Assembly (NCBI GenBank): GCA_964016885.1
Contig: OZ024764.1
Coordinates: 23,684,001 to 23,748,000, forward strand
Direction: 5' to 3'
DNA from: Eledone cirrhosa
Taxonomy: Eukaryota
Length of the DNA stretch: 64,000 nt
Below are positions 22,606-52,217 of this stretch, piece after piece. The notes beneath the pieces are model-generated. The model had not been told where the DNA came from and made no database searches. It saw nothing but the letters and a program-made list of their open reading frames with translations. The stretch's first letter is position 1, and every line of letters starts with the position of its first letter. The position numbers and the translations under genes are program-made.

Positions 22606-22866
22606 GTACGGACGATGGACAGTTACAGCCACCCCAACCTCATGGGACTCCCTCTTCAGAAGGGCCACCAACGTACTGATCTTACAGAGGAGCTTGGCAG
22701 TACGGGGTCTAAATACTTCTGAGGTCTCAATGGTGACCAGTGTGAAGATACATACAAATGATGTCATCCTAGTTATGTTGGACTGTAATATACTGGGGTA
22801 TAGAGAGGCCTTAGCCTGTCTCAGCTGAGTCACCCTGGGTTGTGTCATCTAGATACCAGATAGGGG

Positions 22867-25337
22867 TATAGCGAGATTACTGAGATTGTATGAATGTAAC
22901 AAAACGAGACATGGTTTGTGTATATAATATTTAATTAACGGTAGATGGAATACTTGACATGTCAAAGATAGATGTTAGAATGAAACAAAGTTAGTAGTTA
23001 CCGTTTTGATTGCCAGGCAAACGCGGCTGGCAGAGGGCGCCTGGCTAAGGCCAGGCGCCTGTTGGCCAAATTAATGGCAGAGCCAAATGAGAAGACTCTT
23101 GACCTGGTGCCGAAAAGGCAAAGAGAGCAAGGAAGCTTAAAGTTGTTAGTTTTATAGCGAGATTACTGGTTGCATGAATGTAACAAAACGAGCCAATGTT
23201 TGTGTATATAATATTTAATTAACGGTAGATAGAATACTTGACATGTCAAAGATAGATGTTAGAATGAAACAAAGTTAGTAGTTACCGTTTTGATTGCCAG
23301 GCAAACGCGGCTGGCAGAGGGCGCCTGGCCTTAGCCAGGCGCCTGTTGGCCAAATTAATGGCAGAGCCAAATGAGAAGACTCTTGACCTGGTGCCGAAAA
23401 GGCAAAGAGAGAGAGGAAGCTCAAAGTTGCTAGTTTTATAGGGCTCTGACCGGAAGTTGCAGAAAGGGTTCCACTTCCCGTCTAGATCCCAATCAAAACA
23501 AGGGAGACAACCGCTACATAACCTCCCGCCAGAATTTTAGTGTATAAAAATCGAAATGAAAATATGTAGCAAGTTGGCGAGAATGTTGTAACAGGCATGA
23601 AAATTACGACAAAAGAATGTTTGGAAAAATCAATGATAGATATCAAGGTAGCCAACCGCTCTTGGCCAGAGCACGACTGGACATCCATCTATCCATCACC
23701 CAAAGATACAATGTAATAAAGTAAAAGTAATAAAAGAGCTCAAAGTTCAAAATATAGTTCACAGGTGTGCAATCACATGACAGCTGGAAAGAAAGTGTGT
23801 TCCAGAGAATGAATGCAGGTGGTTTCTGTTCTGTGGTATATCGTGAAATTTCCAACCTCCGAATGGATTTTCTCACAGGAAGAGTGCTGCAAAAATAAAT
23901 TCTCTGGCTTTGGTGAAGCTGTGTTGATGTATTGCTGTTGCTGTTATATTGCTGTTGCTGCTGCTGTTGTCTCGCTGAGTGAGCGTATTCGGTGTTTAAA
24001 TTCACAGTAAAAAAATTTTTTTTTTAGAAAAAAATGAGTTGCGCAAAGTGCTAGAAATAGCAGCCGAAGTTGATGGTCGATGTTGAGAATGCGTTGACCT
24101 GGAAGGGTCAAGAGGCCAGCGACCAGAGAAATAAGCATTCTTAATAAATGCGCGGTTATCAACGGTAAATTTACATTGTAAATTTATAAACCGGCAAATA
24201 GAAGAATATAGCTTAAGGCTGAAGAATCCTTGGGGGAGAAATGGCGTGCGGCTGTCTGTGAGTAAGAGACATCTCAGTGAATCGAGAATTTATGCTGCCT
24301 ACACGTGCCAATACAAGGTTGAAAAAAAATATTTCTAACGCGCGAGAAAATGATAGTGCAATTTTGAAAGTGACAATGATGAAAAAGAAAGGCTTCAATC
24401 AGCATAATTATTGGTGTGAACTTAGGAAAAAAACAAAAAACTTGAACGATGAAGAAAACGAAGAACAAAAGGCAATGGTTCATCGAAAATAAATGTTCCT
24501 GTTGAAATGTTTTTTAAAGAATATCAAATTTCTTTTTTTTTTTGTGTTTTGAAAGAGTTCGTTGTAAGAAACGAGAAACATATATATATATATCGTGAAA
24601 TGTTTTTTTTTGTTTTGAAAGTGTTCGTTGTAAGAAACGAGAAACATATATATATATATTGGTGAAATGCGACAGTTAATTGATGCGTGAGAGAAAAAGT
24701 ATGTCTGTGCGAATTCCACATGTGCGTGTGTGCGTGTCCTTGAGTATTTTCATAGTTTGTCGCTAAATTTGCTGTGTATTCGTAATGTTACTCACAAAAC
24801 CAGATGTGCTATTTTTTTCTTTTTTTGGGGGTGACCACTTATAGCGATGAACGGCTGCGTGTTCGTATCACGTCGGGGTCACCAATATAGCGAGATTACT
24901 GGTTGCATGAATGTAACAAAACGAGCCAATGTTTGTGTATATAATATTTAATTAACGGTAGATAGAATACTTGACATGTCAAAGATAGATGTTAGAATGA
25001 AACAAAGTTAGTAGTTACCGTTTTGATTGCCAGGCAAACGCGGCTGGCAGAGGGCGCCTGGCCTTAGCCAGGCGCCTGTTGGCCAAATTAATGGCAGAGC
25101 CAAATGAGAAGACTCTTGACCTGGTGCCGAAAAGGCAAAGAGAGAGAGGAAGCTCAAAGTTGCTAGTTTTATAGGGCTCTGACCGGAAGTTGCAGAAAGG
25201 GTTCCACTTCCCGTCTAGATCCCAATCAAAACAAGGGAGACAACCGCTACAGTTTTATAGGGCTCTGACCGGAAGTCGCAGAAAGGGTTCCACCTCCCGT
25301 CTAGATCCCAATCAAAACAAGGGAGACAACCGCTACA
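22867..25337 (-). mobile_element. Older solo LTR (Gypsy-like), split by a nested insertion; 4-bp TSD GGGG
   Basis: Halves at 22867-23152 and 25256-25337. GGGG at 22863-22866 and 25338-25341; the empty site CAGGGGTGACTAG is at ~1360 in unit A. Confidence 0.85.
23153..25251 (-). mobile_element. Young non-autonomous LTR retrotransposon: two 366-bp LTRs, tRNA-Trp PBS, PPT, 4-bp TSD GTTT
   Basis: LTRs at 23153-23518 and 24886-25251 appear identical (minus strand TGTAGCG...CGCTATA). PBS TGGTGACCCCGACGTGAT (24867-24884, minus); purine-rich GGCGGGAGGTTA before the 3' LTR; no gag/pol in the 1.37-kb interior. Confidence 0.9.
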
Positions 25338-26673
25338 GGGGTAACTAGACCATGTTGTCAACTGTCAGCACCAATAGGAGTGAGGCGAGTGGGTCCCCTT
25401 GCTAGACACCATATATAAAAACGTATTTGCTAATTACTTTAATGAATAATTTGTTTCATACGTAATTATTACTTTTAACACAATAGGATTTTGTACACGT
25501 GTTTGTTTGAAAACATCTTTCAAAGAAGTATGAGACAGTCTTTTGTAGTCTTCTGGAGTTGCGACCGATAGATAGTATTAGCAATTGGAAAGACCAATGG
25601 AAACATTGTTTCCTCGGTCCGATTTGACGAAAAGTCGATCGTAAAAAAAATATATATAGAGAGAGAAACACAAACATACACTACTGTATTACATATGTCA
25701 GGGGAGACAACTCTCGTTACATCCACCCTTCTTTTTGATATACATTCATTAAATACTTTGTTCAATGGAACCTGCTTTATTTTGTGTCCTAAGTAGATTT
25801 CTGTTTAAGTATTTACGTGATTCACAATGATTCACGTAACCAAGTTACTTACATAGAGATATATTTCACATAGAATCACAACAAATGAAAATATTAAGTC
25901 AACACTCTGTCAATCAGTCTCACATCACATGGGGTGCCGGAGCCTCCCTCTAATACTTTCTGAGACAGTCTTACCTCGAGTGATAGCAAGGCTAAGATGT
26001 TGGAACTACCAAACACCCTCATATGTATCACCTGACACCTCGGTAAGGAGAGCTGCCAACGATAACAAGAACCTCGTTGTCAGGGACCTATCTCCTCCAA
26101 ACTTCTCCAACACCCCAGACTAGAATATTCTACTCTTTATTCCCTATCAAATATTTTTCAGTCTAGTCATTTATCTTGTATCTTGTATATGTATTTTCAA
26201 AACTAACTGTCACATTTGTGAGACCCCAGTTAGTGATGTTTTCGTCTCCCTCCCACATCCTACATGCTGTAGTAAAAGTGAGGGTCACTGCTTCCGTAGA
26301 CGAACGAAATAAAAGTTAAACTACCAGTAATTATCGGCAAAGTATTTATTCCAGTCTGTGATGTTTGAGAAGCTGGGCTGCTGACAACAAAGTTGTGGTC
26401 ACTGTTGGCGGCTGGCTTTACCGAAGTACCCGATGACTCTTGTGAGGGTACTTAGCTGTTCTGGCGGTTTAGCCTCCATGACATGATTTTACTGAGATAC
26501 CCGGTGATCTCTGTCAGGGTACTTAGCTGTTCTGGCGGTTTAGCCTCCATATGACCCGATCTTACCGAGATACCCGGTGATCTCTGTCAGGGTACTTAGC
26601 AGTTCTGGCAACTTAGCCCCCATATGACCCGATTTACCGAAGTACCCGGTGATCTCTGTAAGAGTACTTAGCT

Positions 26674-32360: not shown

Positions 32361-32909
32361 TGTGGTTATCTCTACTTATTCCTTTTCTACATATGGAGCA
32401 GGGCCACTTTCCCTAAGGGGTCAGGGTCTTCTCTCCTATCCATTACCACTTTAGTTTTGGCTAAGTATATTCTCAGAACTTACCATTTCAAATTCTATAT
32501 CTATAGTTGGTCATCTACATAGAGAAGTTTCCATAGACAGCCAGTCTTAAACCTCTCTGTTATGGCTTGGAGAACTATGATGAACAACAGTGGGCTAAGA
32601 ACTAAACCATGATGAACTCCTACCTGTACCTTCAATTCCTCACTAAACACACTTTACTGACAGCTTCTCACAAGCCATTCTTCTACACCTAATTTCTTTA
32701 ACCCTTTAGTATATAAACTGGCCATATCTGGCCAGAATTCTCCCACATCTTTCTGTTCAAACTGGCCGTAACTGGTCACTTATACTTATGTTACGGTATT
32801 GTTCTCAAATTAAGTAACATCAATATCTCATAGATTTGATATTATGAGAGATAAAGCATTTACTGTGAAAATATAATAGTAAATATAGAGTAATGTGAAT
32901 ACTAAAGTG

Positions 32910-33560
32910 TTAATCTAATGTCACTAATAACTACTTTTATCTGTCAGTTTAATCTAATGTCACTAATAACTACTTTTATCTGTCAGTTTAATCTAATGTC
33001 ACTAATAACTACTTTTATCAGTCAGTATAATCTAATGTCACTAATAACTACTTTTATCAGTCAGTATAATCTAATGCTACTAATAACTACTTTTATCAGT
33101 CAGTATAATCTAATGTCACTAATAACTACTTTTATCTGTCAGTTTAATCTAATGTCACTAATAACTACTTTTATCAGTCAGTATAATCTAATGTCACTAA
33201 TAACTACTTTTATCAGTCAGTATAATCTAATGCCACTAATAACTACTTTTATCAGTCAGTATAATCTAATGTCACTAATAACTACTTTTATCAGTCAGTT
33301 TAATCTAATGTCACTAATAACTACTTTTATCAGTCAGTATAATCTAATGTCACTAATAACTACTTTTATCAGTCAATTTAATCTAATGTCACTAATAACT
33401 ACTTTTATCAGTCAGTATAATCTAATGCCACTAATAACTACTTTTATCAGTCAGTTTAATCTAATGTCACTAACAACTACTTTTATCAGTCAGTTTAATC
33501 TAATGTCACTAATAACTACTTTTATCAGTCAGTATAATCTACTGCCACTAATAACTAACC
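32910..33560. repeat. 39-bp minisatellite (~16-17 copies)
   Basis: Unit aatctaatgtcactaataactacttttatcagtcagt(t/a)t. Confidence 0.95.
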
Positions 33561-34521
33561 TATGTTAGTCAGCACATTCTTCACAAAAGAAGGCCTTAGT
33601 ATTTATTACAGTCCATTTATCAATATAGAAATATTATATGAAATTTGTACTGATGTATTACAAGTTTCTGAGTATCTTATAATGTTCTTTTATTATTTCA
33701 GAATACCAGAGGACATTGGCATTAAAGAGCACGTTACATCAGACATATCCTCAATATTAACCATTTCTAATGAAAGAAACTACCCATCATTTTCAAATAA
33801 TTTTGAAAACACTCAACACTTTGAAGGGATTTAGTAATATAACTAAATTTATCAGTATTAAGCTGCTATTTGGAACATAACTTTGCACAATTTCATGAAG
33901 TTACAATGGAAAGTTTTTAGATAAATATAAAGACTGATATGAAAAGGATAAAACACTATTATATAAGTTGTTTCATCAACACCATTATTTAAAGACGAAA
34001 GGAAGCTGTTATACAGAACAGATACAACCTTGTTTATATAAATCTATGGGAGAAATACTGGAAAATATTTCTTGTAAACTCAATAACACTTCTATTCTTT
34101 GCTGTCTGGAATATGTAGAAGATACAAAATAAGGCTGAAGAAATTCACAAATGATTTTGTAAGATCTTCATATATTGACAAAGTTGATAGTTGATGGAAC
34201 TACAGGAGTAGAAATATTTCCATTATTACAGGAATAACTAATCAAATAAAAACCAGAAAAATTAGATTCTTCACTGTCTGGAATATGTACAAGATGATTT
34301 TATATGTATATTAAACTTGAAGAGATCTACAAAACAGTTTGTATCATCTTTAAATATAAAGAAAGACCAAAGTTGATAGAAATATATCTGGAGGAATATA
34401 TTTTAGGAATAATATTATAAACATAAAGAAGAAAAATATCCATATATATTAAGAGGAGAAAAATATTAAAACTGTGAATTATGTGAGAAACTGAGGTGAT
34501 TGATGTCTTTTAGTGGGAGTT

Positions 34522-48880: not shown

Positions 48881-49087
48881 CCTTTAGTATATAAACTGGC
48901 CATATCTGGCCAGACTTCTCCCACATCTTTCTGTTCAAACTGGCCGTAACTGGTCACTTATACTTATGTTAAGGTATTGTTCTCAAAATAAATAACATGA
49001 AAATCTCATAGATTTGATATTATGTGAGATAAAGCATTTACTGTGAAAATATAATAGTAAATATAGAGTAATGTGAATACTAAAGGG

Positions 49088-51260
49088 TTAATCTAATGTC
49101 ACTAATAACTACTTTTATCAGTCAGTTTAATCTAATGTCACTAATAACTACTTTTATCAGTCAGTATAATCTAATGTCACTAATAACTACTTTTATCAGT
49201 CAGTATAATCTAATGTCACTAATAACTACTTTTATCAGTCAGTATAATCTAATGTCACTAATAACTACTTTTATCAGTCAGTATAATCTAATGTCACTAA
49301 TAACTACTTTTATCAGTCAGTATAATCTAATGTCACTAATAACTACTTTTATCAGTCAGTTTAATCTAATGTCACTAATAACTACTTTTATCAGTCAGTT
49401 TAATCTACTGCCACTAATAACTACTTTTATCAGTCAGTTTAATCTAATGTCACTAATAACTACTTTTATCAGTCAGTTTAATCTACTGCCACTAATAACT
49501 ACTTTTATCAGTCAGTTTAATCTAATGTCACTAATAACTACTTTTATCAGTCAGTTTAATCTACTGCCACTAATAACTACTTTTATCAGTCAGTATAATC
49601 TAATGTCACTAATAACTACTTTTATCAGTCAGTATAATCTAATGTCACTAATAACTACTTTTATCAGTCAGTATAATCTAATGTCACTAATAACTACTTT
49701 TATCAGTCAGTTTAATCTAATGTCACTAATAACTACTTTTATCTGTCAGTTTAATCTAATGTCACTAATAACTACTTTTATCAGTCAGTTTAATCTAATG
49801 TCACTAATAACTACTTTTATCAGTCAGTATAATCTAATGTCACTAATAACTACTTTTATCAGTCAGTTTAATCTAATGTCACTAATAACTACTTTTATCA
49901 GTCAGTATAATCTAATGTCACTAATAACTACTTTTATCAGTCAGTATAATCTAATGTCACTAATAACTACTTTTATCAGTCAGTATAATCTAATGTCACT
50001 AATAACTACTTTTATCAGTCAGTATAATCTAATGTCACTAATAACTACTTTTATCAGTCAGTATAATCTAATGTCACTAATAACTACTTTTATCAGTCAG
50101 TATAATCTAATGTCACTAATAACTACTTTTATCAGTCAGTATAATCTAATGTCACTAATAACTACTTTTATCAGTCACTATAATCTAATGTCACTAATAA
50201 CTACTTTTATCAGTCAGTATAATCTAATGTCACTAATAACTACTTTTATCTGTCAGTTTAATCTAATGTCACTAATAACTACTTTTATCAGTCAGTTTAA
50301 TCTAATGTCACTAATAACTACTTTTATCTGTCAGTTTAATCTAATGTCACTAATAACTACTTTTATCAGTCAGTATAATCTAATGTCACTAATAACTACT
50401 TTTATCAGTCAGTTTAATCTAATGTCACTAATAACTACTTTTATCAGTCAGTATAATCTAATGTCACTAATAACTACTTTTATCAGTCAGTATAATCTAA
50501 TGTCACTAATAACTACTTTTATCAGTCACTATAATCTAATGTCACTAATAACTACTTTTATCAGTCAGTATAATCTAATGTCACTAATAACTACTTTTAT
50601 CTGTCAGTTTAATCTAATGTCACTAATAACTACTTTTATCAGTCAGTTTAATCTAATGTCACTAATAACTACTTTTATCTGTCAGTTTAATCTAATGTCA
50701 CTAATAACTACTTTTATCAGTCAGTATAATCTAATGTCACTAATAACTACTTTTATCAGTCAGTTTAATCTAATGTCACTAATAACTACTTTTATCAGTC
50801 AGTATAATCTAATGTCACTAATAACTACTTTTATCAGTCAGTATAATCTAATGTCACTAATAACTACTTTTATCAGTCACTATAATCTAATGTCACTAAT
50901 AACTACTTTTATCAGTCAGTATAATCTAATGTCACTAATAACTACTTTTATCTGTCAGTTTAATCTAATGTCACTAATAACTACTTTTATCAGTCAGTTT
51001 AATCTAATGTCACTAATAACTACTTTTATCTGTCAGTTTAATCTAATGTCACTAATAACTACTTTTATCAGTCAGTATAATCTAATGTCACTAATAACTA
51101 CTTTTATCAGTCAGTTTAATCTAATGTCACTAATAACTACTTTTATCAGTCAGTATAATCTAATGTCACTAATAACTACTTTTATCAGTCAGTATAATCT
51201 AATGTCACTAATAACTACTTTTATCAGTCAGTTTAATCTACTGCCACTAATAACTAACCT
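49088..51260. repeat. 39-bp minisatellite (~55 copies) with a 351-bp higher-order repeat
   Basis: Same unit as 32910-33560. The variant cagtcac recurs at ~50177, 50528 and 50879. Confidence 0.95.
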
Positions 51261-52217
51261 ATGTTAGTCAGCACATTCTTCACCAAGGAAGGCCTTAGTA
51301 TTTATTACAGTCCATTTATCAATATAGAAGTATTATATGAAATTTGTACTGATGTATTACAAGTTTCTGAGTATCTTATAATGTTCTTTTATTATTTCAG
51401 AATACCAGAGGACATTGGCATTAAAGAGCACGTTACATCAGACATATCCTCAACATTAACCATTTCTGATGAAAGACACTACCCATCATTTTCAAATAAT
51501 TTTGAAAACACTCAACACTTTGAAGGGATTTAATAATATAACTATATTTCTCAGTATTAAGCTGCTATTTGGAACATAACTTTGCATAATCTCATGAAGT
51601 TACAATGGAAAGTTTTTAGATAAATATAAAGACTGGTATGAAAAGGATAAAACACTTTTATATCAGTTGTTTCATCAACACCATTATTTAAAGACTAAAG
51701 GAAGCTGTTATACAGAACAAATACAACCTTGTTTATATAAATCTATGGGAGAATTACTGGAAAATATTTCTTGTAAACTCAATAACACTTCTATTCTTTG
51801 CTGTCGGAATATGTAGAAGATACAAAATAAAGCAGAAGAAATTTACACATGATTTTGTAAGATCTTCATATATTGACAAAGATGATAGTTGATGGAACTA
51901 CAGGAGTAGAAATATTTCCATTATTACAGGAATAACTAATTAAATAAAAACCAGACAAATTAGATTCTTCACTGTCTGGAATATGTACAAGATGATTTTA
52001 TATGTATATTAAACTTGAAGAGATGTACAAAACAGTTTGTATCATCTTTAAATATAAAGAAAGACCAAAGTTAATAGAAATATATCTGGAGGAATATATT
52101 TTAGGAATAATATTATAAACATAAAGAAGAAAAATATCCATATATTGAGAGGAGAAAAATATTAAAACTGTGAATTATGTGAGAAACTGAGGTCATTGAT
52201 ATCTTTTAGTGGGAGTT

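Follow-up and report, generated by a model that had tools for sequence, protein, structure and literature searches.

A probable tRNA-Trp read-through fixed behind the LTR of a CsRn1-like retrotransposon family in Eledone cirrhosa

Background

The methylated adenosine at position 58 of the primer tRNA (m1A58) is needed for the strong stop, and plus-strand strong-stop DNA normally ends before it (PMC8599865). When m1A is followed by A, the C signal obtained in vitro is low (PMC4787781). In Ty1 and Ty3, the 3' end of the minus strand carries R-U5 and the primer site is inherited from the RNA (PMC5371799); work on the mouse ETn/MusD/IAP elements likewise describes Ty1/Ty3 as strictly inheriting the site, and draws no link between the mouse elements and tRNA modifications (PMC7472051). 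For HIV-1, 44 proviruses with tRNA inserts of 7-54 nt have been described, five of which are changed at position 58 and all of which are defective (PMC12657518). The CsRn1 clade of Ty3/gypsy elements, whose range is treated in PMC3587641, has a native primer site of ~12 nt, LTR ends of the form TGT...ATA/AAA and a Gag motif CX2HX9CX3C (PMC2582038).

The locus considered here lies in a stretch of 64,000 nt of the Eledone cirrhosa assembly GCA_964016885.1 (contig OZ024764.1, positions 23,684,001 to 23,748,000, forward strand), referred to as the window. An initial annotation, made from the letters alone, had proposed that a tRNA-Trp primer site at this locus preserves a read-through of m1A58. 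No retrotransposon family in which a tRNA read-through became fixed was found described in the literature covered, which extended neither to subscription papers nor to older retrovirus work. Relative to that literature, the fixation in a family of ~550 copies, the built-in control on where reverse transcriptase (RT) stops, and an in vivo record of 31 events at position 58 are new, while the accident itself was already known.

Results

The window element is a young, non-coding gypsy (CsRn1-like) element of 2.1 kb on the minus strand (Table 1), whose interior of ~1.3 kb has no coding capacity according to the ORF list and Pfam, and which is lodged within a solo LTR of its own family. Paired LTRs, a primer site, a polypurine tract, the lack of coding sequence and a high copy number are all traits of the TRIM/LARD type, the 2.1 kb being intermediate between the usual sizes of TRIMs and LARDs. 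The tRNA-Trp primer site, the 4-bp target duplication and the TGT...ATA LTR ends are features of CsRn1. The ORF and Pfam check of the element revealed no gag, and thus no CX2HX9CX3C motif, for which reason it would, judged from its sequence, be at most a non-autonomous dependant of that clade.

Table 1. Features of the window element and its insertion site (positions within the window)
Feature	Position	Strand	Remarks
18-nt primer-binding site	24867..24884	-	fully complementary to tRNA-Trp 59-76
T in place of the host-gene A at tRNA position 58	24866..24866	+	host-gene comparison
13-nt extension, match to tRNA-Trp 45-57	24853..24865	-	
Junction spacer, 5 nt	24848..24852	.	may be untemplated or due to slipped copying
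Duplicate of LTR (U5) end + 2-nt spacer	24838..24847	-	compare 24885-24893
Older short primer site, 11-12 nt	24826..24837	-	altered at 24833 in young clade
5' LTR	24886..25251	-	366 bp, ends TGT...ATA; sequence same as 23153-23518
3' LTR	23153..23518	-	366 bp, no difference from 24886-25251
Internal region, non-coding	23519..24825	-	sole ORF of at least 120 aa without Pfam match
Polypurine tract	~23519-23530	-	within internal region
Target-site duplication, 4 bp	23149..23152	.	second copy at 25252-25255
Solo LTR, same family, hosting the insertion	22867..23152, resuming 25252-25337	-	sequence comparison
4-bp duplication of the solo LTR	22863-22866 and 25338-25341		

The motif was found in seven further LTR clusters that have this primer site, family B among them, and a DUF7041 Gag, a protease and an RT are encoded by other elements that share the site. 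Family B (35 pattern-matching sites; coding and CsRn1-like, with RVP and RVT_1 domains detected by Pfam in one copy) has its own extension to tRNA position 45, with T47/A58 and a shared change at position 52. In one chimera (L163), the interior and primer site of the window family are joined to a family B LTR a few bases into U5, and on the basis of this one chimera family B is the likely coding family by which the window element would be mobilised. Elsewhere, the window contains a 9.3-kb direct duplication whose copies are 99% identical, tandem arrays of a 39-bp unit and a number of large elements with inverted repeats (1-20382, 32755-33700, 48900-51400).

Counting from CCA, 24867-24884 corresponds to tRNA positions 59-76 and 24866 to position 58, and the whole of 24853-24884 equals tRNA-Trp 45-76 (CCA included) except for the T at 58. 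An extended site at 24853..24885 beside the 5' LTR had been claimed, which holds for 24853-24884 but not for 24885, a 1-nt spacer between match and LTR that lies outside the match. That the match runs 13 nt past the primer-binding site of 18 nt is borne out with host genes as the reference, as is the claim that its only mismatch is the T at 24866: nine host gene copies of tRNA-Trp(CCA) agree with 24853-24881 in 28 of 29 positions and depart from it only at 58, where they have A instead of T. The CCA is present in the element and absent from the genomic tRNA-Trp gene copies inspected, and therefore the element's copy derives from mature tRNA. A chance match is excluded, because reversed-pattern controls gave no matches in the genome pattern searches. 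A remnant of a tRNA gene or pseudogene was also considered and rejected, as no tRNA gene is called by ARAGORN anywhere in the window and the stretch has the CCA and lacks a 5' half.

The initial annotation had named a T at this position in the host genes, or a failure of these to match the upstream 13 nt, as evidence against it. The 13 nt do match, and position 58 is A in 69 of the 73 distinct ARAGORN gene calls, which come from tRNA-Trp cluster stretches only within the 3.0-Gb genome and are no full census (nor is a generic Rfam tRNA search, which scored only 63 candidates); of the others, two have T, one degenerate call has G and one is unreadable. Each of the two T58 genes (L209:9789 and L215:6717) has one other difference from the window, at position 49 or 57, and both bear further changes in the anticodon loop or D stem. 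Among the tRNA-Trp genes seen, none has changes at both 67 and 72, and one intact gene (L298) combines the change at 67 with A58. On C4, the stretches 353.39-353.49 Mb and 277.40-277.44 Mb hold tRNA-Trp genes by the dozen in tandem arrays, and many of these genes are decaying.

The tRNA copy is part of a 46-nt insertion, consisting of tRNA 76-45, five spacer bases and ten bases of LTR end plus spacer, which precedes the old primer site. In insert-free copies (L221, L224, L241, L245) a 12-nt primer site stands straight behind the LTR, and this arrangement appears to be the ancestral one. Genome-wide, the family counts 541 copies by an internal 21-mer and 555 sites by the junction pattern. Of 70 copies taken in list order on chromosome C1, 61 bear the insertion, seven have the short site only and two are deleted or interrupted; three more in the same range, outside this count (L065, L066, L069), all bear the insertion, the exact site and T58. 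All seven insert-free copies of this sample retain an intact old site. Insert-free copies are confined to the old clade, where they are intermixed with insert-bearing ones (some of them may be losses rather than ancestors), and none was seen in the clade with the altered old site.

Position 58 is T at 548 of the 555 junction sites, C at seven and A at none. When the search was relaxed to admit A, C or G at 58 next to the family's junction, eight sites came up, all C, seven of them inside the 555. Contigs from three public runs (two of one study, maybe the source of the assembly) had no variant of 24866 at 3% or more, a count in which Organism B, with one low-depth contig over the site, was left out. 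The suggested check on whether extension and T58 are fixed or variable thus came out clearly, with T58 fixed genome-wide and no A, and the claim that the element fixed a read-through copy is supported. What the initial annotation missed is that the insertion includes a duplicated LTR end and an older short primer site, that most family copies carry two mismatches with the window copy being a repaired one, and that many other families have met with this accident as well. The 46-nt unit occurs in tandem in L071, L074, L189, L191, L193, L201 and L252, as second-site priming or transfer would give, and a minority of family copies (L009, L080, L155) combine A49 or A57 with T58.

The two mismatches to the tRNA are at positions 67 (24875; 54 of 61 copies) and 72 (24880; 51 of 61), and make up 72% and 75% of depth in X1, respectively. 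Escape from silencing by tRNA fragments is a possible cause of their prevalence. In a tree of 87 copies based on 900 interior bases (of 97 rows, 10 were left out because their cover was short; the bootstrap had not settled completely), copies with an exactly matching site are scattered in the young clade, and their flanking markers stay young. At least 18 changes between the exact and the two-mismatch state are needed on 70 rows (a sample in which exact sites are over-represented), with five starred sister pairs. Given the scattered exact sites and young flanks, the primer copy therefore sometimes overwrites the site, at least as far as 67. All 46 of the young exact-site copies are C47/G57/T58, i.e. 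the part from 59 to 76 is occasionally rewritten from the primer, while 47, 57 and 58 are not; among the independent read-through events described below, by contrast, A58 is found in 23 of 31 and A57 in 8 of 31. Since the repaired copies all keep T58, RT as a rule halts before 58; the read-through was probably a one-off founding event, and the extension has since been inherited as ordinary sequence. A read-through that refreshes the extension every cycle was ruled out by the same 46 of 46 copies, and a swap of the site by recombination with old-clade RNA by the markers on both sides, which are those of the young clade.

The first LTR bases after the primer (24886-24915; 62 young copies) are hypervariable, with minor fractions of 0.21-0.52 in columns 9-12 after CCA. 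The first 20 nt after CCA show 39 haplotypes among the 62 young copies, against 10-21 in the next four windows of this size. This suggests error-prone initiation of minus-strand synthesis.

A genome-wide search for a T-loop match with any base at 58 and an exact site with CCA returned 167 genomic sites (103 + 64), 154 of which were analysed (three unlisted sites and 10 tandem copies on C14 were left out). These form 38 junction clusters, of which 32 reach at least position 47, or 31 after L015 was merged by hand into the window family; L122 (A58, short, with a different junction), which the script grouped with the family, was not counted apart, and six short clusters with ends at 48-53 (two with T, three with A and one with C) were set aside because they might match by chance. 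Of the 31 events, 8 have a base other than A at position 58, compared to changes at 13 of 341 of the remaining free positions (p 9e-5, Fisher); this background is an underestimate, as it is by matching that an extension is defined. The excess persists against control positions 48-52 (8/154; p 1e-3) and control A positions (2/76; p 7e-4), as well as without the window family (7/30 vs 13/336; p 4e-4). The idea that RT misincorporates at position 58 is thereby strengthened, since a mismatch hot spot there is what m1A predicts.

The non-A events comprise T (the window family and L152), C (L033, L035, L040), G (L158) and two one-junction lineages with A/T and G/T; in these lineages a single junction goes with differing states at 58 (A in L049/L140/L142 versus T in L157/L037; G in L156 versus T in L159). 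The remaining 23 events have A58, and eight of the 31 have A57. A57 is the majority state of the host genes (51/73), yet G57 prevails in the read-through events (23/31). End points, which are blurred by microhomology, lie at 28-29 (3 events), 35-38 (10), 39-41 (9) and 43-47 (9). A jump to a copy of the LTR end is also seen in L035, L036, L130, L122 and the lineage of L049, while comparison of L038 with L008 shows one that went downstream.

Several further observations were made on these events. The longest read-throughs, L033, L034, L039, L040 and L309, end at 27-29 (L309 at ~25), and L033 has C in place of G37; positions 26 and 37 of tRNAs are commonly modified. A change of G49 to A recurs in unrelated events (L026, L034, L035, L102, L140) as well as in the family copies L009, L080 and L155, while position 49 is no CpG site and A49 occurs in only one degenerate gene. 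L035:1450-1950 and L036 are single LTRs of other families with a primer site, a tRNA extension and an LTR-end copy abutting microsatellite DNA, and it seems that there the duplicated LTR end served as the integration end. In L314 and L204, primer sites of two different families are joined head-to-head.

Discussion

Taken together, the T58 extension within the 46-nt insertion is probably the product of one founding RT read-through past a presumably methylated A58, likely with incorporation of a wrong base, followed by a jump to the LTR end. RT would have run once past its usual stop at the presumed m1A58 of the tRNA-Trp primer, placing dA opposite the modified base, which would be read as T, and plus-strand strong-stop DNA would have copied the tRNA up to position 45. 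The unpaired 3' end of this strong-stop DNA would have been unable to anneal at the old site, and may instead have been elongated with the 3' end of the minus strand as template, an end that bears U5 in Ty elements; the integrated heteroduplex would then have been resolved to the new strand. That a complete primer site of 18 nt was left where it is needed may be why the insertion survived, and the later change in the old site could have halted its loss. With R-U5 at the minus-strand 3' end and a site inherited from the RNA, the Ty elements fit both the jump onto an LTR-end stub and the persistence of mismatched sites, while the repair of the site from the primer seen here departs from the Ty1/Ty3 model. 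The 5-nt junction spacer counts against the proposed course of events, in that the mechanism does not account for it.

Whether the T itself stems from misincorporation is not certain for a single event, although it is likely. Plain A in 23 of the 31 events speaks against it, and C makes up 3 of the 8 non-A events, which is above the in vitro share for m1A followed by A (with a different enzyme, and small numbers here). An A58 that escaped methylation could have been read through in the ordinary way, with T arising afterwards by point mutation and becoming fixed in the founder lineage; the prevalence of A58 among the independent events fits such a course, as does the fact that the family fixed other nearby changes (67, 72, and 72 of the old site). 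It is nevertheless rather unlikely, as no A58 intermediate with this junction exists in the genome, including in the old clade, which predates the other changes, as the other 13 columns of the extension have no shared variant, and as change across events is concentrated at 58. A second way to obtain T without misincorporation would be the read-through of a rare tRNA-Trp variant with U58, which is unmethylatable and poses no RT stop, so that T58 would simply be templated by a gene. Two T58 gene copies do exist in the clusters (in an incomplete census limited to cluster stretches), the three family copies with A49 or A57 beside T58 recall them, and event L159 fits the haplotype of L215. However, neither T58 gene has the main haplotype of the family and both carry other changes, none of the intact genes seen carries C58 (3 events) or G58 (2), lineages with the same junction differ at 58, and G49A also recurs with A or C at 58, all of which makes this explanation unlikely. 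Highly improbable is a capture of the 45-76 segment from co-packaged RNA of family B with subsequent divergence: both families stop exactly at 45, the L163 chimera exists, and a few window-family copies have the T47 of family B, but T47/A58 (in its 35 copies) versus C47/T58 would require two changes instead of one, C47 is the main state of the host genes, the junctions differ, and blast found no match between the element and family B loci.

Compatible with the founding read-through, rather than opposed to it, is that the extension has since been kept by selection, in that it would pair with tRNA 45-57, open or hold the primer and buffer the two mismatches. The predicted duplex energies (which assume unmodified RNA and an unfolded tRNA) are -66 kcal/mol for 32 nt versus -37 kcal/mol for 18 nt, and -58 versus -29 kcal/mol in the two-mismatch copy. 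Two of the largest families end at 45, and not one of the 13 columns of the extension has a shared variant, against 14 of the 85 in the internal flank. This last difference is not significant, however, family B tolerates a shared change at 52, and the full 18-nt site or drift may suffice to explain the success of the family, so that selection is conceivable but doubtful. Folding the leader gave no structure that was consistent from copy to copy. More speculative still is the wider idea that the primer sites of LTR retrotransposons form a fossil modification map (with mismatches at m1A58, once at G37, and ends near modified positions), and that pairing over 32 nt to G45 was selected twice, once in a coding gypsy family and once in the parasite of that family, as a novel means of opening the primer.

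Comparison with known systems

The delayed second-strand transfer of HIV-1 resembles the window family in that tRNA sequence is contiguous with the primer site and changed at position 58 (PMC12657518), and this trait is present in the window element as tRNA sequence beyond 59 that is contiguous with the primer site, CCA included. In contrast, the HIV-1 products are defective single proviruses with a downstream join and a deletion (PMC12657518), whereas the window family has an upstream jump with a duplication and ~550 germline copies. With the 23-nt insertion of the HIV-1 MAL type it shares a partial primer-site duplication downstream of the site that is fixed in successful lineages; that insertion, however, is a duplication of viral sequence rather than a tRNA copy beyond 58 (PMC3185550). 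The CsRn1 clade has in common the tRNA-Trp site, the 4-bp duplication, the TGT...ATA ends and, in coding relatives, the CHCC Gag (PMC2582038), while the window element differs from its described members in being non-coding and in having a 32-nt tRNA match and a duplicated LTR end and old site. As in mouse ETn/MusD/IAP (PMC7472051), the commonest site has two mismatches and exact copies are scattered over the tree, but here it is a gypsy element that is repaired from the primer, with a mismatch at a presumably modified position. Arrest combined with misincorporation is also the RT signature of m1A described in vitro, with a laboratory enzyme and a lower share of C (PMC4787781).

Set beside these systems, the family provides germline, in vivo evidence from a genome alone for where a gypsy RT stops on its primer and how it behaves at position 58. 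An error known from HIV solely as a dead end can give rise to a large family, and a gypsy element can, unlike yeast Ty1/Ty3, inherit a copy of its primer. It is likely that the genome thereby keeps a DNA record of a tRNA modification, and the same scan could be applied to any genome, in search of footprints of tRNA modification in species for which tRNA data are lacking.
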